From assembly GCA_964634375.1 (NCBI GenBank), contig CAZWIQ010000003.1, positions 1-42,389 of the forward strand: a stretch of 42,389 nt of DNA. The letters run 5' to 3'. Each line of letters opens with the position of its first letter. The first letter of the stretch is position 1. The notes below the pieces were generated by a model. That model was given only the letters and a program-made list of their open reading frames with translations, had not been told where the DNA came from and made no database searches. Made by a program: the position numbers and the translations under genes. Source of the stretch: Candidatus Micrarchaeota archaeon. Its GTDB lineage: Archaea; Micrarchaeota; Micrarchaeia; Norongarragalinales; Norongarragalinaceae. Below are positions 3,911 through 12,979 of the stretch, one piece after another.

Positions 3911-3924
3911 AAGAGGTGGAATTG

Positions 3925-6357
3925 ATGGCAAGCGAAATGAAGAATATTTACTGGTTTGAAGAGTTAGGCAAGGAAAACCTGCTTCAAGCGGGCGGGAAAG
4001 GCGCTAACCTCGGCGAAATGACGCGCGCGGGACTGCCCATCCCCCCGGGATTCATCGTCAGCGTAGGAGCCTACTACCGCGCCATCCGCGAAAACAACTT
4101 GGCTGGCTTCATCGAAGGCAAGTTGCGCAACCTCGACGTTCAAAACGCTGAAGCGCTGCAACGCGCGAGCGACGAAATCAAGGCGGCAATCGAGCGCGCC
4201 CCCGTTCCCGCGGACATCCGCACCGACATCGTGCGCGCCTACAACCGCATGTGCGGCGTAAGCGGGATTCCGAGCGCGAACCAGGAAATCCTCGTCGCGG
4301 TGCGCAGCAGCGCGACCGCCGAAGATTTGCCGACGGCTTCGTTCGCCGGGCAACAGGCGACTTTCCTGAACATGAAAGGCGCGGAACAAGTCGTCGACGC
4401 GGTGCGGCGCTGTTGGGCCTCGCTCTTCGAGGCGCGCGCGATTTACTACCGGAACGAGAACGGTTTTGAACACATGCGCGTTGGCTTGAGCGCCGTCATC
4501 CAAAAAATGATTCAAAGCGAGTCAAGCGGAGTAATGTTCACCGCCGACCCCGTGAGCGGCGACCGCTCGAAAATAATCATTGAAGCTGGGTTCGGGCTCG
4601 GCGAAGCCGTCGTGTCCGGGCAAATAACGCCCGACAACTACGTCGTCGACAAGGAAACGCTCAAGATTCTCGACAAATTCATTTCGCAACAGGAAATGAT
4701 GATTATTCGTTTGCCGAACGGCAAGACGGACCACGCGGACGTTCCAGAAGAAATCCAGGAAAAACAGAAAACGAACGACGACTTCATAGTGCAAATCGCG
4801 AAATTCGGGCGCAACATCGAAAAGCACTACGGTTACCCGCAAGACATCGAGTGGGCGGTAGAGAGAGGGCGCGTTTACATCACGCAAAGCCGCGCGATTA
4901 CGACGATCAAGGGGAAAGGCGAAGAAAGCGCGAAAAGCGAAGCAGCGCAAACGAAGCAAAGTGAAGCCAAGCCAAGCGAAGCCAAACCCCAAAGCGCGGC
5001 AGCAAGCGAAACCAAGGCCGGCGACGCGAAAGATGCGAAAGTAATCCTCAAGGGACTCGGCGCGAGCCCTGGAATCGCGAGCGGCGTCGTCCGCCTCGTA
5101 ACCGACAAAAACCAACTAGGAAAAATCGGGAAAGGCGACGTACTCGTAACCGAGATGACTAGCCCCGACTACGTTCCCGCGATGAAGCGCGCCTCGGCAA
5201 TCGTCACGGACGCGGGCGGAATGACGTGCCACGCCGCGATTGTAAGCCGTGAGCTAGGAATCCCGTGCATCGTTGGAAGCAAGACGGCGACGCGCGTTTT
5301 GAAAGATGGGCAGACGGTTACGGTCGACAGCAAGCGAGGCGTCGTCTACGACGGAAAAATCGCGCTCGAAGCAGAAACCGCGGCTGCAAGCGCTGGCGGA
5401 GCTCAAAGCCAAGCCACGACTATCGCCGCAGGAGGAGCGTATTCAACCGCAACGAAGATTTACGTCAACATAGCAGACGCGACGGTTGCTGAAAAAGTTG
5501 CCGGCAGGGACGTCGACGGAATAGGACTGCTTCGAGCCGAATTCATGATTGCGGGACTAGGGGTTCACCCGAACAAGCTCGCGAAAGACGGACGCGCAAA
5601 CGAGTTCGTCGACATGCTTGCCGAGAATCTCCGCAGAAGTTGCACCGCGTTCGACCCGCGCCCAGTGATTTACCGCGCGAACGACTTCAAGACTAACGAG
5701 TACCGCGGCTTGCCGGGCGGCGAGGAATTCGAGCCCAAGGAAGAAAACCCGATGATTGGTTACCGCGGGTGCGCGCGCTACGTCCGCGATCCGACCGTGT
5801 TCAAGATGGAAATTGAAGCCATCAAGAAAGTCCGCAACGAGTACGGACTCAAAAACTTGTGGCTCATGATTCCGTTCGTGCGAACAGTCGAGGAATTGCG
5901 AGAATGCAAACGCATTTGCGAGGAAAACGGGCTCAAGCGCTCGCGCGACTTCAAATTCGGAATAATGGCTGAAGTTCCGTCGGTTTCGATTGTTCCCGAG
6001 GAATTCTGCAAAGTCGGAATCGACTTCATGTCTATCGGGAGCAACGATTTATGCCAATTAGTGCTCGGCCTGGACCGCGATAATCAAACAATCGCCGACA
6101 GTTTCGACGAGCGCGACCCGGCGGTCGTCACGGCGATGAAAAACATTATTGAGACGTGCCACAAGTACGGAACGAAAGCGTCGATTTGCGGGCAGAGTCC
6201 AAGCACTTACCCTGAAATCGCCGAAGCGCTCGTCCGCTTCGGAATCGACAGCATGTCTGTGAACGTCGACGTCATCGAGAGGACGCGCAAATCGGTTGCG
6301 AGCGTTGAAAAGAAAATCCTGCTCGAGAGAAGCAAAAACGCCGCGGAAAAAGAGTAG
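3925..6357 (+). CDS. ppsA: Phosphoenolpyruvate synthase (pyruvate, water dikinase)
   Basis: N-terminus LGKENLLQAGGKGANLGEM..GLPIPPGF, phospho-His swivel motif GGMTCHAAIVSRELGIPCIVG and a C-terminal PEP-utilizer TIM domain. GAGGTGG lies 5 nt upstream of ATG 3925. Confidence 0.95.
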   Translation: MASEMKNIYWFEELGKENLLQAGGKGANLGEMTRAGLPIPPGFIVSVGAYYRAIRENNLAGFIEGKLRNLDVQNAEALQRASDEIKAAIERAPVPADIRTDIVRAYNRMCGVSGIPSANQEILVAVRSSATAEDLPTASFAGQQATFLNMKGAEQVVDAVRRCWASLFEARAIYYRNENGFEHMRVGLSAVIQKMIQSESSGVMFTADPVSGDRSKIIIEAGFGLGEAVVSGQITPDNYVVDKETLKILDKFISQQEMMIIRLPNGKTDHADVPEEIQEKQKTNDDFIVQIAKFGRNIEKHYGYPQDIEWAVERGRVYITQSRAITTIKGKGEESAKSEAAQTKQSEAKPSEAKPQSAAASETKAGDAKDAKVILKGLGASPGIASGVVRLVTDKNQLGKIGKGDVLVTEMTSPDYVPAMKRASAIVTDAGGMTCHAAIVSRELGIPCIVGSKTATRVLKDGQTVTVDSKRGVVYDGKIALEAETAAASAGGAQSQATTIAAGGAYSTATKIYVNIADATVAEKVAGRDVDGIGLLRAEFMIAGLGVHPNKLAKDGRANEFVDMLAENLRRSCTAFDPRPVIYRANDFKTNEYRGLPGGEEFEPKEENPMIGYRGCARYVRDPTVFKMEIEAIKKVRNEYGLKNLWLMIPFVRTVEELRECKRICEENGLKRSRDFKFGIMAEVPSVSIVPEEFCKVGIDFMSIGSNDLCQLVLGLDRDNQTIADSFDERDPAVVTAMKNIIETCHKYGTKASICGQSPSTYPEIAEALVRFGIDSMSVNVDVIERTRKSVASVEKKILLERSKNAAEKE

Positions 6358-6466
6358 AAACCGAAGACGCCGCGAAACTTGTTTGAACAAGGTTCAGCGG
6401 AGGCTTGGCGGCGCATTGGTTTTAAAGGCGCGCGCAAGTAAGTTTCCTCGCTGGTGGGAAAAAACC

Positions 6467-9259
6467 GTGTCTTCCGAAGCTGAAATCGAAGCCGCTAAAA
6501 AAACCGTCGCAACGCTGGTCGCCCAATTCGACGAAGTTGTCGCTAGCGGGCGGTTGAAAACCTTCAACGAGGAAAACACGAAGCGCGCTTTCATAACGCC
6601 CCTATTCCGAGCCCTCGGCTGGGCCGTCGAAACCGCCGGCGACGAAGTCACGAACGAAGACCGGGTCTCGAAAGGACGCGTCGATTATTCGTTTCGCTTG
6701 AACGGCATACCCAAATTCTTTTTGGAAGCCAAAGCCGCCAGCAAGGAACTCGAAGACAAAGACACCGAGCAAGCGATTAACTACGCTTACTACAAGACGA
6801 CGACTTGGGCAGTCCTCTCAAACTTCCGCACGCTCATAATCTACAACGCGGACTGGAAAGGAAAAGAAGCCAGCGACTTCCGCTTCATCCGCTTCGAATA
6901 CAAGGAATTCCTCGACCGATTCCCGCAACTCTGGCTCCTCTCGAAACCCGCGTTCCAACAAGGATTGCTCGACAAGGAAGCAGCCAACCTCGGCAAAAAA
7001 GACTACCGCCCGAAAGTAGGCGACTTGCTCCTCCAAGAACTAACCAAACAACGCGAAGCCCTCTCCAAAAACATCGTGAAAAACAACGCCAAGCGCGACT
7101 TAAGCGAGGCAGACGTTGACGAAGCAGTCCAACGCATCATCGACCGTCTAATCTTCATTCGAACTACGGAAGACCGCAACATCGAAGAACCCCGCCTCAA
7201 AACCCTCGCGCGCGAATTCGCGGGAGGCAAACGCGGCAAAGTCACTGCCGCGCTCAACGAGATTTACTTGAAGTACGACAAGACTTACAACAGCAAGCTC
7301 TTCACTTTCAAGCAAGAGGACGAAACCCAACGCCACTTGTGCGAAACCCTGGAAATCGACAACGAAACCCTCCTCAGCCTAATCGAAAACTTGATGAAAT
7401 ACGATTTCTCGGCGATTGACGCCGACGTCCTCGGCAACATTTACGAGCAATACTTAAGCCACATCTTGCGAAAGACTGAGAAGCGCGCGAAAGTCGAAAG
7501 CAAGGAAGCCCACCGCAAAGAACAAGGCATTTACTACACGCCGACTTACATCGTGGACTACATCGTGCGCAACACGCTCGGCGAAGCAATCAAAAACAAG
7601 AAGCCCGACGAAGTCGACGAGATTCGCGTTCTCGACATGGCTTGCGGCAGCGGCTCCTTCCTGCTCAAGGCTTTCGACGTTCTCGACGGCTACTACAAGA
7701 CTCACGACAAGCAATACGCGCAGTCCGCCCTTGACACCGCCACCGACGCCGCGAAAGTCACGCGCAAGACGAAGATTCTCCGCAACAACTTGTTTGGAGT
7801 CGACCTGGACCCTAAAGCCGTCGAAATCGCGCAGCTTAACCTGCTCCTCAAAGCCGCGGAGACGAAGCACCGCCTTCCGGACTTGCGTGAGAACGTCAAG
7901 CAGGGGAATTCGCTTATCGACCAAGCTCTGGGGGAGGATGCGCGGGCGCGTGCGTTTGACTGGAAGAAGGAATTCTCTGAAATCGTCGGCACTGGCGGTT
8001 TCGACGTCATCATCGGCAACCCGCCATACGTGAGCGGCTGGAACATGAGTTTAGAATTTCGCGACTGGATAAAAAAATCAGGCGCATATGCAACGGCGGA
8101 CAAGCATTGGGATATTTACGTTTTGTTTCTCGAACGAAGCATTAAACTAATGAAGAATGGCGCGCGGCTTGGAATGATTCTGCCATACTCTTTCCTTAAC
8201 CAAGCGTATGCACAAAAAATAAGAAGAATGATTTTAGACTCCTGTAAAATTCACGCAATAGTCGATTTGTCTGAAATCGATGTTTTTGCTGACGCGACCG
8301 TAAGAAATTGTATAATAATCTTAGAAAAAAACAATAAAACAGAAAACATTGTGACAATAATAAAAGCAAAGACTGCGGGCGGAATCAGCGAAACAATTGA
8401 ACACAAAATATCTCAAAAAACGTTCAACGAAACGCCAGAAAATATGTTCCGCGTCGATTTGCAACCACGCGACATCAAACTTATAGAAAAAATAAAAACC
8501 AAAAGCATAACACTCGATAAAATTGTTTATTCGACTACAGGGGTCGTCCCACACAGTGAAAAGGAAGGAAAGGGAAAGGAGGCATACATCTCGACTCAAA
8601 AAAAGAGTCAGAAGAGCGTTCCGTATATTGAAGGAAAAAATGTAAACAGATACCAAATAGATTACGACGGACGATTTCTCGAATACGACCCGGACATCGT
8701 TTACAGGCCGTCTTTACCAGAGCTGTTGAAACAACCTAAAATTCTAATAAAAAACGTCGTTGGAAAAAATGGAATTACGGCAACTTTTGACGACTTCGGC
8801 TATTTTACTAATGAAACAGTTAATTGTGTGACAACAAAAAATAAAATAGCTGGCGTTGAACGAAAAGACATTAGATTTTCAAAAAATGAGCTAAGTGAAA
8901 GTGAAAAATACGATTTGAAATTCATCTTAGGACTAATCAACTCTAAACTATCTAATTGGGTTTACCGAAAGATGATTAGCGGAGAACTACATTTCTATCC
9001 AAAGGACGTTAGATCGTTACTGGTGTTCGACATCGAAAAAAACCCAAATAAAAAAGAAGTAATTGAAATAGCCGCAGCTACCGATAAAATGCTAAAGCTA
9101 CATAAGAAACTTACTCCGAACACAGACAAGCAAACAGATGAGCGCACGCGGTTGGAGAAGGAAATCGCTGAGACGGATGCTCGGATTGACGACTTGGTTT
9201 TTGATTTGTACGGGTTGACGGCGGAAGAACGCCGAATCATCGAAGAGGCGGTAAAATGA
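6467..9259 (+). CDS. Type IIG restriction-modification enzyme (PD-(D/E)xK nuclease + gamma-class N6-adenine DNA methyltransferase + target-recognition domain)
   Basis: N-terminal nuclease-like GRVDYSF...FFLEAKAAS. MTase motif I is VLDMACGSGSFLL and motif IV is IIGNPPYV. A long C-terminal TRD follows. GTG 6467 is preceded by GGTGGG. The listed 6296-6466 extension overlaps ppsA and is Arg-rich. Confidence 0.85.
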   Translation: MSSEAEIEAAKKTVATLVAQFDEVVASGRLKTFNEENTKRAFITPLFRALGWAVETAGDEVTNEDRVSKGRVDYSFRLNGIPKFFLEAKAASKELEDKDTEQAINYAYYKTTTWAVLSNFRTLIIYNADWKGKEASDFRFIRFEYKEFLDRFPQLWLLSKPAFQQGLLDKEAANLGKKDYRPKVGDLLLQELTKQREALSKNIVKNNAKRDLSEADVDEAVQRIIDRLIFIRTTEDRNIEEPRLKTLAREFAGGKRGKVTAALNEIYLKYDKTYNSKLFTFKQEDETQRHLCETLEIDNETLLSLIENLMKYDFSAIDADVLGNIYEQYLSHILRKTEKRAKVESKEAHRKEQGIYYTPTYIVDYIVRNTLGEAIKNKKPDEVDEIRVLDMACGSGSFLLKAFDVLDGYYKTHDKQYAQSALDTATDAAKVTRKTKILRNNLFGVDLDPKAVEIAQLNLLLKAAETKHRLPDLRENVKQGNSLIDQALGEDARARAFDWKKEFSEIVGTGGFDVIIGNPPYVSGWNMSLEFRDWIKKSGAYATADKHWDIYVLFLERSIKLMKNGARLGMILPYSFLNQAYAQKIRRMILDSCKIHAIVDLSEIDVFADATVRNCIIILEKNNKTENIVTIIKAKTAGGISETIEHKISQKTFNETPENMFRVDLQPRDIKLIEKIKTKSITLDKIVYSTTGVVPHSEKEGKGKEAYISTQKKSQKSVPYIEGKNVNRYQIDYDGRFLEYDPDIVYRPSLPELLKQPKILIKNVVGKNGITATFDDFGYFTNETVNCVTTKNKIAGVERKDIRFSKNELSESEKYDLKFILGLINSKLSNWVYRKMISGELHFYPKDVRSLLVFDIEKNPNKKEVIEIAAATDKMLKLHKKLTPNTDKQTDERTRLEKEIAETDARIDDLVFDLYGLTAEERRIIEEAVK

Positions 9260-10641
9260 CTTTTTCGTTTGCCGACTTGCAGAAGTGGATTACTGAATGG
9301 GAAGGTCCAACGCTGGAGTTCAAGCTAAGGGTCAACGAAGACGCTGGGAACACGATTTCCGCGTTCGCCAACACCTTCGGCGGAACAATCGTTTTTGGGG
9401 TCGAATCCAAAAAAAAAGAATTAACGGGGTTAAGCAACGTCGACGAGGAAAGCCGGCGGCTGCGGCAAATCCTAGATTCCTGCAAGCCAAACCCAAAACC
9501 TGAAATAACCCACATCAAAGGAGAAGGAAAAACGTTTATCGCAGTCAGAGTCGAACAAATTGCTTATTCGCAGACGCCGTGCTTTTTCAAAAAACGCTGT
9601 TTCATAAGGCAAGGAACAACAAACCTAGAACTAGCGGGAGAAGAACTCATCGACTTTTTGAGAAAGCGAGCAATCCTTAATTTTGAGGAATCAAAAACCA
9701 GTGCCAGACTGCACGACTTGGATTTGGAGAAAATCAAGCGTTTTCTGAAGCAAAGGAAAACAAGTTATGAAAACCTAAATGAGGAAGAAACCAAGAGAAT
9801 TCTTGCGGGGCTAAGCGTAGCGAATTACAACGGAGAATTCTTTCTGAAAAACGTTGCGCTTCTTTTTTTCGCTAAAGACCCCCAAAAACTTTTTTCTAAT
9901 TTGGAGGCAAGAGTGGTCAGGTTCAAAGGAACAGAAGCAGAAGTAGGCGCAATCATTTTGGACAAACGCGTTTGCGGCACGATTCCGGAACTAATAAACG
10001 GAACTTACAAGCTTGTATCAGAAAATATTGGAAAAACCTTCAGATTAATCGGACCAGAGAGGAAGGAAATTCTGGACTACCCAGCCGAATCGCTTCGAGA
10101 GGTTATCACGAACTCGTTTGGACACCGGGACTACTTCGAAACAAAAGAAGTTTTAATCGAAATTTTTGAGGACAGACTAAGCATAACCAACCCAGGCGGG
10201 CTCCTACCTGGCCAAAATATTGCTAATTTCGACAAAACACCCCGCCATCGAAACCCAATAACCTATCGGTTGCTTCATGACCTAGGCTTGGGAGAAGGGC
10301 TCGGTCTCGGGGTCAGGTTGATTCGACGGCAATTTCGGGAAACCGGCTTGCCCGACCCAGAATTCTACGACGTTGGCAATGCGTTCCAAGTCGTTTTTTA
10401 CAATCATTCAAGCAAGAAGCCACGCCACGCAGTTGAATTTGAAAACGATAGGCAAAAGCAGGCGTTAGCTTACCTTCAAAAAAACAAGTCGATAAAATCG
10501 GCTGAATTCGCTCGCCTTGCGGGCGTTTCTATCCCAACAGCTCTTAAAGATTTGAAGGAATTGGAAAAGCAGGGCAAAATCAAAAAAATCGGAAAATACA
10601 AGGGGGCAAAATACGAATTGGAGAAACCTATAAAAACATAA
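9256..10641 (+). CDS. Schlafen-type AlbA_2 domain / HATPase_c_4 / C-terminal winged-HTH protein (COG2865-like)
   Basis: EGPTLEFKLRV....ISAFANTFGGTIVFGV is AlbA_2. HRDYFE...LSITNPGGL...RHRNP...GEGLGLGV is the RecG-C/HATPase_c_4-like part. C-terminal HTH is SAEFARLAGVSIPTALKDLKELEKQGKI. An ATGA overlap links it to the RM gene stop. Confidence 0.8.
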   Translation: MTFSFADLQKWITEWEGPTLEFKLRVNEDAGNTISAFANTFGGTIVFGVESKKKELTGLSNVDEESRRLRQILDSCKPNPKPEITHIKGEGKTFIAVRVEQIAYSQTPCFFKKRCFIRQGTTNLELAGEELIDFLRKRAILNFEESKTSARLHDLDLEKIKRFLKQRKTSYENLNEEETKRILAGLSVANYNGEFFLKNVALLFFAKDPQKLFSNLEARVVRFKGTEAEVGAIILDKRVCGTIPELINGTYKLVSENIGKTFRLIGPERKEILDYPAESLREVITNSFGHRDYFETKEVLIEIFEDRLSITNPGGLLPGQNIANFDKTPRHRNPITYRLLHDLGLGEGLGLGVRLIRRQFRETGLPDPEFYDVGNAFQVVFYNHSSKKPRHAVEFENDRQKQALAYLQKNKSIKSAEFARLAGVSIPTALKDLKELEKQGKIKKIGKYKGAKYELEKPIKT

Positions 10642-10684
10642 ACTTTCAGAAACTTTAAGTAATTTAAAGTAAGTTTAAGTAAAG
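10641..10684. repeat. Four 10-bp phased degenerate repeats (AACTTTCAGA AACTTTAAGT AATTTAAAGT AAGTTTAAGT)
   Basis: Read directly. The exact 10-bp period begins at the last base of the stop codon (10639-10641) of the AlbA_2 gene. Confidence 0.5.
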
Positions 10685-10692
10685 GCGATGTT

Positions 10693-10857
10693 TTGAGCGG
10701 CGTTAACGTAAACTCTAATGTTCCTTGGCAAGTCGCCATCTTCATTTTGAGCCTGCTAGCGCTGTTCTTTAGCGGAAACCTGTTGGGCGGAGACTGGTGG
10801 AAACTTGCTATTCCGGCACTAGTTGCGGCTATAATCTCGTTTATTTCAATGCTTTAG
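10693..10857 (+). CDS. Possible 54-aa two-TM mini-protein (TTG start), not in the supplied track
   Basis: Hand translation gives LSGVNVNSNVPWQVAIFILSLLALFFSGNLLGGDWWKLAIPALVAAIISFISML*. It has two hydrophobic segments and I see no SD. Confidence 0.25.
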   Translation: MSGVNVNSNVPWQVAIFILSLLALFFSGNLLGGDWWKLAIPALVAAIISFISML

Positions 10858-10867
10858 AAAAACACGA

Positions 10868-11029
10868 TTAAGTTATCTTCAATCCAGTGCGCTTTTCGAA
10901 TTCTTTAGCGTTGTAAACCTTCATTTTTCCGGCTTTAATCAACTTCAAAATTCGTTTGGCGTCGCGAACGTCTTCTTCATCTTCGCGCTCTTCCAATTCC
11001 CGCAATTGCTTCGCAGTTAATTTCACCAT
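10868..11029 (-). CDS. Small charged protein, antitoxin-like (53 aa)
   Basis: MVKLTAKQLRELEEREDEEDVRDAKRILKLIKAGKMKVYNAKEFEKRTGLKIT. GGTGG lies 6 nt upstream of the ATG at 11029. The acidic stretch followed by 'short visit + GL' resembles C-terminal parts of RHH/RelB-type antitoxins. No adjacent toxin is seen. Confidence 0.35.
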   Translation of the reverse strand: MVKLTAKQLRELEEREDEEDVRDAKRILKLIKAGKMKVYNAKEFEKRTGLKIT

Positions 11030-11125
11030 TTCAACCACCATTCGAGAAAACAAACGCAACAAACAATAAAAAACCAGCCGAATTTGTAAACAAAGCGCGT
11101 TAACATTTGTTACATTTAGGCGTTT

Positions 11126-12979
11126 TCAAGCGTAATAATAATTTCCGCTTTCTTTTTGTTCGCGGTCCGCGACGCTTCCCGCCTTGTTCGCCCTCGGGCG
11201 CCCCGTCTGCGGGTCGCGGCGGAAAGTCACGCCCATTTCCCGCAGGAAATCGTGCATTCCCTCGCGCTGCGCCTGCGGCGCCCCCGCTCGCCCTTCCTTG
11301 CCCGCCACGCCCGAAAACAGCAGGATTTTGTCCGAAACGGCATCGACGAACAGCAAGTCGTGATCCACCACGAAACAGGGGGTTGCGGTGGCTTCACTTG
11401 TCCGTTTGATGAGTTCGGCGGCTTCGAGCCGCTGCTCAACGTCGAGGAATGCGCTCGGCTCGTCGATTAACCGCAAATCGCATTCCTGCGCGAGCGCGAG
11501 CGCGATTGATAACCGCTGTAGTTCGCCGCCGCTCAGCTCTTTCACGCGCTTGTCGAGCAAGTCCTCGATTTCCAGCTTGCGCTTTATTTCCCCAAAACCA
11601 TCCGGGGGGTTAGTCATGGCTTTCGCGAAGAGTTCGCGCACGGTTCCAGTGAAGTCGCTTTTCAAGTACTGCGGCTTGTAAGCAACCCGCTTCTTCGGAA
11701 TCGAGTGAGCTGCGTCACCATCGCTCTTTTCAACGCCCGCCAAGAGTTTAACGAAAGTCGTTTTGCCTATGGCGTTCGGCCCGAGCACGCCGACGGTTTC
11801 AGCGAACACTTCGCCGCCGCGAACAGTCAAGCCAAAGTCAGAATACTTCTTGGTGAGCGGAGGGTAGGCAAAAACCGATTCCTTGCGGGCATCACTATTT
11901 GCGGGCGCTCGCGCGTGGAAGTGAATCGAGTGGTCGCGGAAACGCACGTTTTCCTCCCGCAGAAAGCCATCCAAGAATTCGTTGATGCCGACCCTCGTGC
12001 TTTTAGGCTGGCTGACTACTCCGAACGCGCTTTTCTCGCCGTAAAGCACGCACACGTTGTCGCTCAAGTAATCGAGAACCGCTAAGTCGTGTTCGACGAC
12101 CACGACGCTTTTTTTGTGTTGTTCAGCGAGCGAACGAACTCCTTTCGCCGCCAAAAGGCGCTGCTTGACGTCGAGGAAACTTGACGGCTCATCAAAAAAG
12201 TAGGTTTGAGCTTCGCGCACGAACGCCGCCGCGATTGCCGCGCGCTGCAACTCGCCGCCGCTCGCCTCGCACAGCTTTCGGTGCAAGCAATTCCCGAGTT
12301 CGAAAACCTTGATTGCTTCGTTGTAAGCGTCGCGCTCGTCACGCTCGCGAACGAACGACTCGATTGAATCGTCGCCGCGCTGCGCGGCGATTTCGTCGAC
12401 GTACTGCTGTTTCGAAACGACGCCGCGTTCGCCTGCCGGAGTCGTGAAAAACTGCGTTGCAGCAGGCGGCAGGTACGACCGAAGTTCTTTCGGCGTCAAA
12501 TCGTAATGAAAAACTCCGAAATTCGGCGCGAGCGAACCGTCGAGCAAGCGCAAGAGCGTCGTCTTCCCGATTCCGTTTACTCCGATGACGCCCGTGACGC
12601 TGCGCTTTTGCGGGAGGAGGAAGCCGAACAAGCGGAACGCGTTTTGCCCGAATTGGAAGAACGGCTCGCCGAGCGCGCGAGGCAGGTTGACGATCTTGAT
12701 TGCGCGGAACGGGCACTTTTTCGCGCAGAGGCTGCAGCCGACGCATTGTTTTTCGTCGATTACTGGGAAAATTTTTGACTTCTTTGCGTGATGAGCAACT
12801 GCGAGAGTTAGCTGGCTTTGCTTTGCTTCATCCTTCGGAATGGCTATCGCTCCGCCGCCCATTCGTTTTACGGGGCACGCTTTCACGCACGCGAAGCCGC
12901 ATTTTTCGGAATCGCACTTCGAAAAATCGATTACCGCGATTCGCGAGCCGCGCGTTCCGCTCGTATTCTTGTCCTTCAC
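11126..12979 (-). CDS. abce1: ABCE1 / RNase L inhibitor homologue (ribosome recycling ATPase)
   Basis: N-terminal di-cluster Fe-S domain (CDSEKCGFACVKACP; CVGCSLCAKKCP). Two ABC cassettes follow (GVNGIGKTT, LSGGELQR; GPNAIGKTT, LSGGELQR). Confidence 0.95.
   Translation of the reverse strand: MKDKNTSGTRGSRIAVIDFSKCDSEKCGFACVKACPVKRMGGGAIAIPKDEAKQSQLTLAVAHHAKKSKIFPVIDEKQCVGCSLCAKKCPFRAIKIVNLPRALGEPFFQFGQNAFRLFGFLLPQKRSVTGVIGVNGIGKTTLLRLLDGSLAPNFGVFHYDLTPKELRSYLPPAATQFFTTPAGERGVVSKQQYVDEIAAQRGDDSIESFVRERDERDAYNEAIKVFELGNCLHRKLCEASGGELQRAAIAAAFVREAQTYFFDEPSSFLDVKQRLLAAKGVRSLAEQHKKSVVVVEHDLAVLDYLSDNVCVLYGEKSAFGVVSQPKSTRVGINEFLDGFLREENVRFRDHSIHFHARAPANSDARKESVFAYPPLTKKYSDFGLTVRGGEVFAETVGVLGPNAIGKTTFVKLLAGVEKSDGDAAHSIPKKRVAYKPQYLKSDFTGTVRELFAKAMTNPPDGFGEIKRKLEIEDLLDKRVKELSGGELQRLSIALALAQECDLRLIDEPSAFLDVEQRLEAAELIKRTSEATATPCFVVDHDLLFVDAVSDKILLFSGVAGKEGRAGAPQAQREGMHDFLREMGVTFRRDPQTGRPRANKAGSVADREQKESGNYYYA

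Follow-up and report, generated by a model that had tools for sequence, protein, structure and literature searches.

Organization of the locus

The window, that is, the whole stretch of 42,389 nucleotides analysed here from a Candidatus Micrarchaeota archaeon (contig CAZWIQ010000003.1), harbours a probable two-gene defence cassette in which the gene of a type IIG restriction-modification (RM) enzyme is followed by a Schlafen-type gene, as read from open reading frames, translations and Pfam searches. The features of the locus are as follows; handles of the form G000 denote the genomes compared, and A1 and A2 are the alignments of the Schlafen and RM proteins, respectively.

3916-6357: ppsA, flanking gene (Pfam)
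6358..11125, no strand: inserted island of about 4.8 kb, from the stop codon of ppsA to that of ABCE1 (comparison with empty sites)
6420..6427, + strand: TTTTAAAG, likely TATA box of the operon, 47 nt ahead of the RM start (sequence; upstream regions of G030, G015 and G039)
6467..9259, + strand: type IIG RM enzyme of 930 aa, a single chain that carries nuclease, methyltransferase and target-recognition parts (Pfam, PADLOC, A2)
6677..6736, + strand: PD-(D/E)XK nuclease motif, D73 ... E87-x-K89, invariant in 7/7 A2 sequences
7634..8029, + strand: methyltransferase motif I (D390..GSGSF) to motif IV (N518-P-P-Y), invariant A2 columns
8621..9001, + strand: TaqI_C-type target recognition domain, aa 719-845, low-GC and hypervariable (Pfam)
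9245..9259, + strand: GAGG ribosome-binding-like site (9245-9248) and ATGA stop/start overlap (9256-9259), homologous junction in G030, G015 and G039
9256..10641, + strand: Schlafen (AlbA_2), GHKL (HATPase_c_4) and winged helix-turn-helix (wHTH) protein, 461 aa, ATG start (Pfam, predicted structure, Foldseek)
9301..9324, + strand: Schlafen catalytic motif E16-x4-E21-x-K23, with E16 invariant in A1 and E21 almost so
10096..10200, + strand: GHKL N-box (E282, N286, HRDY 290-293) and N312-P-G314 loop, invariant A1 columns
10444..10590, + strand: C-terminal wHTH, aa 397-445 (Pfam HTH_DeoR, HTH_24, DIP2311-like_C)
10642..10684, + strand: downstream array of TTTAAAGTAA-like 10-mers directly after the Schlafen stop, exact copy at 10663-10672
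10693..10857, + strand: 54-aa ORF, a putative gene, with two hydrophobic stretches, directly after the downstream array
10868..11062, - strand: 64-aa ORF, relic of older hotspot cargo (similarity to same-site ORFs in G001 and G003)
11126-12979, minus strand: ABCE1, flanking gene (Pfam)

The island-like placement between ppsA and ABCE1, proposed in the original prediction, is confirmed by the Pfam assignment of both flanking genes and by empty sites in relatives. In two genomes of the same genus the ppsA-ABCE1 gap measures about 127 nt (G004, contig C8) and about 130 nt (G002, contig C48), and comparison with these empty sites puts the left junction of the island near 6380. The same site is occupied by other cargo in G001 and G003 and is a hotspot with changing cargo. 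The C-terminal half of the 64-aa ORF matches an 86-aa ORF at this site in G001 and also a tail fused to a Schlafen-like gene at this site in G003. The 54-aa ORF gave no Pfam match; at the equivalent position G015 has a 63-aa hydrophobic ORF. Lower-GC DNA had been ascribed to the Schlafen gene and the small ORFs behind it, and both 60-mers in question (9781-9840 and 9901-9960) do contain 28/60 G+C, but the drop starts at about 8050, within the RM gene: G+C is 0.54 in 6467-8050, 0.38 in 8051-9259, 0.44 in the Schlafen gene and 0.40 in 10642-11125, against 0.57 for the genome.

The two encoded proteins

The RM gene product is matched by the PADLOC model REase_MTase_IIG (PDLC03604, 4.5e-124) and by the Pfam domains HSDR_N (2.8e-10), Eco57I (1.9e-41), N6_Mtase (1.8e-32) and TaqI_C (4.4e-12). 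Its GTG start at 6467 is backed by the orthologue alignment and by a GGTGGG 8 nt upstream; a start at TTG 6296, as in the longest frame, would overlap ppsA. As in Eco57I-family type IIG enzymes, an N-terminal PD-(D/E)XK (PD-ExK) nuclease, a gamma-class N6-adenine methyltransferase with motifs I and IV and a C-terminal target-recognition domain of TaqI_C type share a single chain, whereas the closest sequences with solved structures belong to lone methyltransferases or to BREX proteins (7LNI, 8C45, 8W0P). BREX PglX belongs to the same methyltransferase family. An assignment to BREX was nevertheless rejected: the NCBIfam PglX models reach at most 137 bits against cut-offs of 400 to 900, and the neighbours are ppsA and ABCE1, whereas BREX needs PglZ and BrxL nearby. 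Among orthologues the target-recognition part shows a pairwise identity of 18-38%, as against 59-69% for aa 1-690, and its GC3 is 0.36-0.45 in 4/4 of them.

In the Schlafen protein, Pfam recognizes SLFN_AlbA_2 at aa 16-125 (1.1e-19), HATPase_c_4 at aa 297-381 (1e-20) and a wHTH at aa 397-445, the latter through HTH_DeoR (2e-5) and HTH_24 (7.7e-5), both above the cut-offs. The domain calls first made for the two proteins from the letters alone agree with Pfam and PADLOC. Foldseek matches of the structure model (pLDDT 85) include 3LMM, SLFN N-domains, the SAMD9 tRNase domain and the GHKL folds of PDK and VanS. DIP2311 of Corynebacterium diphtheriae (PDB 3LMM) is the only solved full-length structure with the architecture of the Schlafen protein (profile match E 5.8e-21, Foldseek E 1e-21, about 16% identity), and as an uncharacterised structural-genomics entry it offers a likeness of architecture and fold.

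The Schlafen motif Ex4(E/D)xK, as defined in PMC13056530, is kept in 11/13 relatives in A1, and the catalytic motifs of both proteins of the pair are intact (A1, A2). The protein is predicted to be an RNase on account of this conservation, since no activity was found for its class, the GHKL and GHKL-HTH Schlafens, in the literature searched: HisKinase fusions were among the candidates in PMC13056530, in which protection is reported from the DUF262 and Ig-like fusions only. ATP binding by the GHKL module is uncertain, because the G1 box reads N-P-G and not the expected D-x-G-x-G (A1).

The gene junction and the constancy of the pairing

The 4-nt overlap of RM stop and Schlafen start is homologous in the genome of the window (G000), G030, G015 and G039, in which the flanking genes differ. 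These four genomes represent three families and share 54-77% identity in the Schlafen protein and 59-69% in the RM enzyme. In G061 the RM gene, a 158-aa ORF and the Schlafen gene follow each other in this order with a 4-nt overlap at each junction. Such overlaps are by themselves not rare, being found in 3/23 co-directional neighbour pairs of the whole window, and the pairing is judged to be above chance because three further genomes, in which the flanks differ, repeat the same overlap. The ATGA overlap and the coupling read from it at this locus are borne out. A junction kept across such diverged genomes implies that the two genes have long travelled and diverged together.

The partnership is nonetheless less strict than the fixed one originally envisaged. 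Among the 11 full-length Schlafen genes of the close clade (identity of at least 51%), five are preceded by an orthologous RM gene and six are solo, the latter being intact and located between housekeeping genes or beside an integrase. The linked or solo state changes at least three times on the close-clade tree. In G052, one of the solo genomes, a 22-residue relic of the RM 3' end lies directly ahead of the Schlafen start (E 1.6e-8), which reveals that the RM gene was lost here while the Schlafen gene was kept intact. Paralogous type IIG genes have other genes downstream, namely HTH_3-Peptidase_M78 and DUF4411 (G030, G015), ATPase_2/DUF234 (G009) or ORFs without assigned function (G000, contig C55, and G001).

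The neighbourhood survey suggested with the original prediction gave a divided answer, in that RM association was found in the close clade (5/11), whereas distant homologues were mostly unlinked, with RM genes at 5/75 genome loci and RM or BREX parts at 7/24 viral-contig loci. Arrangements in the viral sample include Schlafen genes nested as hsdM-Schlafen-hsdS and PglX-Schlafen-PglZ. The majority of distant homologues lie next to housekeeping genes, lon and gyrA among them, and the family therefore also includes members with non-defence or unknown roles. The pairing of RM and Schlafen genes is real, yet not fixed.

Motif arrays around the Schlafen units

Arrays of the 10-mer TTTAAAGTAA bracket these archaeal Schlafen units and enclose the RM gene wherever one is present. 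Flank zones making up 2.3% of 256,406 nt hold 43/71 of the motif matches, an enrichment of about 65-fold, and exact copies occur only three times across the G000 genome, one of them at 10663. A blind scan for the motif in 68 genomes returned 15 new sites, leading to five further Schlafen genes; the arrays travel with the Schlafen gene. The arrays contain a TTTAAA box, which lies 26-38 nt ahead of the unit's first start codon, and in units with an RM gene they precede that gene. The upstream array is degenerate in G000 itself, where TTTTAAAG probably acts as promoter and looks like a degenerate remnant of the upstream array of orthologous units. The arrays may be operator sites of the Schlafen protein's own wHTH; the downstream array could alternatively form a terminator hairpin or serve as promoter for the small ORF that follows. 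The bracketing of these archaeal Schlafen units by arrays is possibly a new point.

Relation to described Schlafen systems

The description of such proteins as poorly characterised, and the doubt as to whether the pairing had been described, are outdated by papers from 2026 that tie Schlafen-ATPase-HTH proteins to RM and BREX (PMC13462974, PMC12839542, PMC13056530), a tight association being reported in the first two for Schlafen-ATPase-DNA-binding proteins. The locus is a new example and not a new system, the Schlafen-RM/BREX association being already published. Cluster 7 (RM) and cluster 2 (BREX) of PMC13462974 and the BREX-linked Schlafen-minimal kinase-wHTH proteins of PMC12839542 resemble the present protein in domain order and type of neighbourhood, but in the present case a stand-alone type IIG enzyme serves as partner and the host is an archaeon. 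Furthermore, these two papers give no cis-element, whereas TTTAAAGTAA arrays are present here. "Schlafen" and "type IIG" did not co-occur in the literature searched.

Schlafen domains are described as Mn-dependent tRNases in phage defence, with E15/D20 as catalytic residues in RorSlfn5 (PMC13056530). The HisKinase-HTH architecture, which accounts for 19.2% of 5,930 pSlfns (Perez Taboada et al., Nat Microbiol 2026, PMC13056530), combines an N-terminal Slfn/AlbA_2 domain with Ex4(E/D)xK, an ATPase of the minimal histidine-kinase type and an HTH at the C-terminus, and the present protein, which is placed in this class, has the AlbA_2 domain with this motif (residues 16-23) and the C-terminal HTH of the class. 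That survey covered complete RefSeq genomes and not metagenome-assembled DPANN, to which the present archaeal protein belongs. Schlafen with GHKL, with or without HTH, is the largest prokaryotic Schlafen group: it comprises 34% + 19% of the 5,930 counted in PMC13056530, and the SLFN-pAgo preprint (bioRxiv 10.64898/2026.05.29.728809) puts its share at 58.6% of 103,533. In the portion of the literature searched, no demonstrated activity or trigger was found for stand-alone members without an Argonaute part.

The "Schlatpase" supradomain of SLFN-pAgo (bioRxiv 10.64898/2026.05.29.728809) likewise joins Schlafen and GHKL, and residues 26-388 of the present protein align to the Schlafen-bearing pAgo model PDLC02394 (1.2e-23, PADLOC), but the Argonaute part is missing and a wHTH stands in its place. 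Cleavage of tRNA and GHKL-driven tetramerisation, reported for SLFN-pAgo in that preprint, are assumed by analogy for the present protein. The locus adds an archaeal (DPANN) Schlafen-GHKL-HTH example with a type IIG partner and documents a Schlafen gene outliving its RM partner; apart from this and the arrays, the pair is the expected kind of defence-island content.

Interpretation

The locus is best explained, with a probability of roughly 0.55, as a compact, horizontally moving defence cassette of two stacked defence genes, in which the Schlafen protein would be a latent RNase effector in its own right and not a dedicated RM regulator; among the roles offered for it by the original prediction, that of second effector is favoured. 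The cassette was inserted into the ppsA/ABCE1 hotspot of a Micrarchaeia (DPANN) genome, where the type IIG enzyme would mark the cell's own DNA and cut unmarked invader DNA. The Schlafen gene, presumably read off the same transcript via the stop/start overlap, would supply a second line of defence in the form of a latent RNase, most likely a tRNase. Its GHKL module is expected to govern an assembly that depends on ATP, and its wHTH is expected to be a DNA-binding part whose target may be the TTTAAAGTAA arrays, which flank the unit on both sides and include its promoter. Inside this bracketed unit the RM gene would be an optional passenger and not an obligate partner.

A more far-reaching version of this reading, which we hold to be doubtful, makes the Schlafen-GHKL-wHTH gene an autoregulated mobile cassette whose own wHTH binds the bracketing TTTAAAGTAA arrays and brings a captured gene, here the type IIG RM gene, under the same control. 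Occupancy of the arrays, or competition for the wHTH from incoming DNA or RM-made DNA ends, would license the RNase. If true, the commonest class of prokaryotic Schlafens, as yet uncharacterised, would thereby gain its first DNA ligand together with a testable model of its trigger.

The position of the Schlafen gene inside the RM transcription unit, behind a conserved coupled junction, would also suit a PrrC-like guard, that is, an RNase silenced by the type IIG enzyme or watching its products, which fires on viral inhibition of restriction or on cut DNA ends and stops translation. In PMC13462974 it is conjectured that Schlafens linked to RM sense structures which arise when DNA is cleaved, and the SLFN-pAgo preprint (bioRxiv 10.64898/2026.05.29.728809) reports a fusion of a Schlafen-GHKL module with a type I specificity subunit. 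The resemblance to PrrC and EcoprrI would lie in an RNA nuclease that is latent, has an NTPase module and is encoded within an RM locus. PrrC, however, joins an ABC ATPase to a nuclease of unrelated fold, and Pfam detected neither an ABC-type NTPase nor a PrrC nuclease domain next to AlbA_2 and HATPase_c_4 here; moreover, prrC is described as always RM-linked, whereas linkage is 5/11 in the close clade. A toxin silenced by the RM enzyme should not outlast RM loss, and the six intact solo genes, together with the deletion in G052, therefore count against a guard, as does the free swapping of the RM target-recognition part beside a partner that is retained. We consider such a guard unlikely.

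Adjacency by accident of two independent defence genes sharing a transcript is more improbable still: the hotspot changes its cargo and type IIG paralogues have other downstream genes, but the same junction in four genomes of three families with differing flanks is hard to reconcile with chance. The stacked cassette remains the preferred reading, and autoregulation by the Schlafen protein is compatible with it without replacing it. Controller (C) proteins are small HTH proteins encoded ahead of the nuclease gene that bind operator boxes in their own promoter. A regulator of this type, whose wHTH would bind the TTTAAAGTAA arrays in the promoter of the operon and set how strongly, or when, the RM gene and its own gene are expressed, and whose Schlafen and GHKL parts would be ligand sensors and not a killing nuclease, would agree with the DeoR-type and DIP2311-like "transcriptional regulator" matches, with the conserved arrays at the TTTAAA-containing promoter and with the rarity of the motif elsewhere in these genomes, but it is the least probable alternative, as the product has 461 aa in three domains, is encoded after the RM gene and retains its nuclease motif, a type IIG enzyme, being a single chain, leaves no separate nuclease whose appearance could be delayed, 6/11 close relatives are without any RM gene, and the upstream array of G000 has degenerated.

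The gene pair and its products

The original prediction of a restriction-modification (RM) gene overlapping an AlbA_2 gene by ATGA, with the domains named and between ppsA and ABCE1, was confirmed. We favour, at a probability of about 0.55, a reading in which one mobile unit would carry the RM enzyme and the Schlafen protein as two stacked defences, the latter acting autonomously as a latent RNase effector. Among the roles initially proposed for the AlbA_2 protein this is the second effector, whereas the fixed partnership gives way to an optional pairing. The window is the entire contig C3 of a 1.04 Mb assembly (98 contigs, 82.5% complete), here G000, with the following features:

3916-6357, ppsA, left flank of the pair (Pfam)
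6467-9259, plus strand, type IIG RM gene (930 aa)
9256-10641, plus strand, Schlafen-GHKL-wHTH gene (461 aa), with Pfam matches to SLFN_AlbA_2 (aa 16-125), HATPase_c_4 (aa 297-381) and a winged HTH (aa 397-445)
11126-12979, minus strand, ABCE1, right flank of the pair (Pfam)

The overlap joins the plus-strand frame ending at 9259 to the ATG frame 9256-10641. The RM start is most likely the GTG at 6467, the residue at which the alignment of the orthologues begins; GGTGGG is found 8 nt and TTTTAAAG, a likely TATA box (6420-6427), 47 nt 5' of it. Judged by its sequence, the first protein is a type IIG RM enzyme, matching HSDR_N, Eco57I/N6_Mtase and TaqI_C in Pfam and REase_MTase_IIG in PADLOC (4.5e-124). 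No variation is seen among the seven aligned homologues in the nuclease residues D73 and E87-x-K89 or in the methyltransferase motifs I and IV (NPPY).

In the second protein the Schlafen catalytic motif reads E16-x4-E21-x-K23 and is kept in 11 of 13 relatives. Its AlphaFold model (pLDDT 85, pTM 0.59) matched DIP2311 (3LMM) along the entire length in a structure search, as well as the RNase domains of SLFN13, 12, 14, 11 and 5, the tRNase domain of SAMD9 and the GHKL ATP-binding domains of PDK and VanS, and a sequence-profile search was consistent with these matches. Since the G1 box of the GHKL module reads N-P-G despite a conserved N-box, ATP binding is only putative.

A variable insertion site

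The content between ppsA and ABCE1 differs among genomes of the same genus, and 6358-11125 is therefore considered an island in a site that repeatedly takes different cargo. The gap is about 127 nt in G004 (C8, L155) and about 130 nt in G002 (C48, L148), which represent the empty site. In G001 (C161, L156) the C-terminal 139 aa of an RM enzyme survive as a relic, together with small ORFs, and G003 (C92, L012) carries a distant Schlafen-like gene (30% identity) on the opposite strand. When the contigs of three DNA runs were compared with 5600-11900, two of the runs covered the region piecewise at 100% identity; within this coverage, no contig joined ppsA directly to ABCE1.

Several minor features were observed at this site. 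At the left margin of the island, directly 3' of the stop codon of ppsA, lies a perfect palindrome of two 6-nt halves around a 2-nt spacer (6378-6391), the first half of which can be aligned to the empty site in G004. The C-terminal half of a 64-aa ORF on the minus strand (10868-11062) matches an 86-aa ORF of G001 as well as an in-frame tail of the Schlafen-like gene that G003 carries at this site; the 64-aa ORF is probably the relic of an earlier small gene. In G001 a 100-aa ORF (L156, 107-409, minus strand) has the look of a RelE/ParE-type toxin, by eye only.

The low GC remarked upon earlier is correct for the two 60-mers concerned (28/60 G+C in both) but incomplete, as the drop starts inside the RM gene near 8050. 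The GC content is 0.54 before about 8050, 0.38 for 8051-9259 and 0.44 in the Schlafen gene, with 0.57 for the genome. The recognition-domain part of the RM gene has a GC3 of 0.36-0.45 in all four orthologues and is barely alignable, at 18-38% identity versus 59-69% for aa 1-690; such low GC and divergence would fit frequent swapping of specificity. In the 10 other loci of the close clade (Schlafen genes of at least 51% identity) the GC content of the Schlafen gene is within 0.06 of that of the host locus. The exception is G000 (0.44 versus 0.55), and since GC departs from the locus only there, a recent arrival of the gene in this genome is suggested.

Linkage to the RM gene is recurrent but optional

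Of the 41 genomes searched in the order, 12 were matched by the Schlafen query and 12 by the RM query. In G030, G015 and G039 an orthologous RM gene immediately precedes the Schlafen gene, the 4-nt overlap being the same and the junction homologous; these genomes represent three different families, and the genes flanking the pair differ. A motif-guided search added G061, in which a 158-aa ORF of no assigned family is placed between the RM and Schlafen genes, and solo Schlafen genes, lacking the RM gene upstream, in G052, G060 and G067. Solo genes were also found in G012 (C114) and L043, and in a metagenome locus (62% identity) where the Schlafen gene comes after a tyrosine integrase, one of only two loci from a metagenome scan with a single Schlafen protein.

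The close clade (11 full-length genes, support 100/100) thus divides into five RM-linked and six solo genes. This label requires at least three changes on the tree and is not more clustered than when shuffled (382 of 500 shuffles gave a value as low). Directly before the Schlafen start of G052 a 22-residue relic is 86% identical to the end of the G030 RM protein (E 1.6e-8), showing loss of the RM gene with retention of the Schlafen gene; a suspected relic 5' of the solo gene in G067 was seen by eye only and was not significant by BLAST. None of the nine other full-length homologues in the order (at most 44% identity) has an adjoining RM gene, and in one of them, G035, a 123-aa nuclease-domain fragment comes next. 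The fixed partnership originally proposed is not borne out by these counts, with five of 11 close-clade genes linked, one RM gene lost and distant homologues rarely linked; rather, across close and distant homologues the sequences indicate that the pairing is recurrent and old, but optional.

A PrrC-like guard of the RM enzyme is an unlikely role for a Schlafen protein whose gene recurs both beside the RM gene and alone. That the two are mere neighbours is improbable for genes sharing the same overlap and junction in different families, and a regulator, as had been entertained initially, is likewise an improbable identity for a protein with the conserved Schlafen motif.

Distant homologues and published systems

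The neighbourhood survey proposed earlier showed RM linkage to be rare among more distant homologues. RM or BREX parts were at most two genes away in 7 of 24 viral-contig loci, in arrangements such as hsdR-hsdM-Schlafen-hsdS and PglX-Schlafen-PglZ-BrxL, and a DNA methyltransferase was that close in 5 of 75 genome-wide loci. The genome-wide sample (80 loci kept of 557 confirmed; 75 with a callable focal ORF, five dropped) was mostly Chloroflexota at 25-31% identity, with mostly housekeeping neighbours, e.g. lon and gyrA. The neighbour scan used 118 cluster representatives and took in genes two steps away only from multi-member clusters; Pfam was chosen for it since a phmmer search of the survey ORFs with the complete RM protein proved too insensitive, finding only two methyltransferases. 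The large Chloroflexota Schlafen-GHKL-wHTH group (L050-L121, 25-31% identity) has conserved housekeeping contexts, with Lon at most three genes away in 13 loci and GyrA in seven, which suggests vertical inheritance and possibly a non-defence role. Two bacterial genomes (L055, L112) combine a helicase (825-1086 aa), Schlafen-GHKL and an Eco57I-type methyltransferase (1078-1114 aa) in differing orders.

The pair belongs to a known kind of locus. One survey defined 55 pSlfn architectures, HisKinase fusions making up 34.0% and HisKinase-HTH fusions 19.2%, and found a defence gene no more than 10 kb away from 69.6% of pSlfn genes; it demonstrated Mn-dependent tRNase defence for an Ig-like fusion, and protection was described for just the DUF262 and Ig-like fusions among the seven systems that it tested (PMC13056530). 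Schlafen homologues with ATPase and DNA-binding domains are described as 'tightly associated' with BREX, RM and type I CRISPR, their activation being left open by the authors (PMC13462974). At BREX loci, at least 1,017 taxa carry Schlafen-minimal kinase-wHTH genes, which are read as backup effectors (PMC12839542), and the SLFN-pAgo preprint (bioRxiv 10.64898/2026.05.29.728809) names the Schlafen and GHKL pair 'Schlatpase' and reports ATP-dependent tetramerisation in a Schlatpase-Argonaute fusion. Our literature text search returned none pairing 'Schlafen' with 'type IIG', and published supplements may list RM-linked members.

Motif arrays flank the unit

The 10-mer TTTAAAGTAA forms arrays, with copies in both orientations, just 5' of the first gene of the unit, i.e. 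before the RM gene where one is present, and directly after the Schlafen stop codon. Allowing up to one mismatch, the motif was hit 71 times in 22 archaeal locus records (256,406 nt), and 43 of these hits fall inside 130-nt flank zones totalling 5,940 nt, an enrichment of about 65-fold. Exact copies number three in the G000 genome versus 0.57 expected, one of them at 10663; here the 5' array copy is degenerate and the 3' array intact. Neither the RM-paralogue loci nor the empty sites contain an array cluster, and of 97 bacterial or viral survey loci only 2 do, in neither case at the focal gene. A doubled-motif scan of 68 genomes gave 30 matches versus 10 for the reversed control; 15 sites were new, and five of these adjoin a Schlafen gene or fragment. 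Five doubled-motif hits on viral contigs were dismissed as chance, all being in DNA of 24-35% GC with neither Schlafen nor RM genes.

The wHTH encoded by the unit itself may use the arrays as operators; alternatively, they could serve as terminator hairpins or as promoters of small downstream ORFs, and they offer a direct experimental handle. A TTTAAA box, read off the sequences, is found 26-38 nt ahead of the start codon in the 5' arrays, which are thus likely to include a promoter. As RNA, the 3' array has folding z values of -4.5 (G030) and -4.7 (G012), falling to a mere -1.2 for G000; the 5' array of G030 does not fold. Recombination sites of att type are less likely, given that the empty sites of G004 and G002 lack any copy. 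Papers containing the motif string were unrelated among the matches listed, and the arrays are the one element of the locus for which we could not find a description in the literature.

At L199 (G057:C66, 4100-4700) a 44-residue C-terminal Schlafen fragment between two arrays, beside SecD/F genes, looks like a decayed unit. Just beyond the motif array, about 50 nt after the Schlafen stop, begin a 54-aa ORF with two hydrophobic stretches in the window (10693-10857, plus strand) and a 63-aa counterpart in G015 (L027, downstream of 2160, minus strand), between which no sequence similarity was established.

Other partners of type IIG genes

Type IIG paralogues in G030, G015 and G009 are followed by other genes. 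Those in G030 (L040, 6185-10919) and G015 (L041, 4726-9392), at 37-38% identity, precede HTH_3-Peptidase_M78 (IrrE-like) and DUF4411 genes, and a 42%-identical gene in G009 (L038) precedes an ATPase_2/DUF234 gene. Another contig of G000 (C55, L039, 1-519) begins within a second type IIG-like gene, of which it retains the final 22 codons; the stop of this gene overlaps by GTGA a 150-aa ORF without Pfam match. This ORF and the 158-aa ORF of G061 share no convincing similarity (E 0.006 over 78 aa). The C55 arrangement may be another case of a variable slot after such RM genes.
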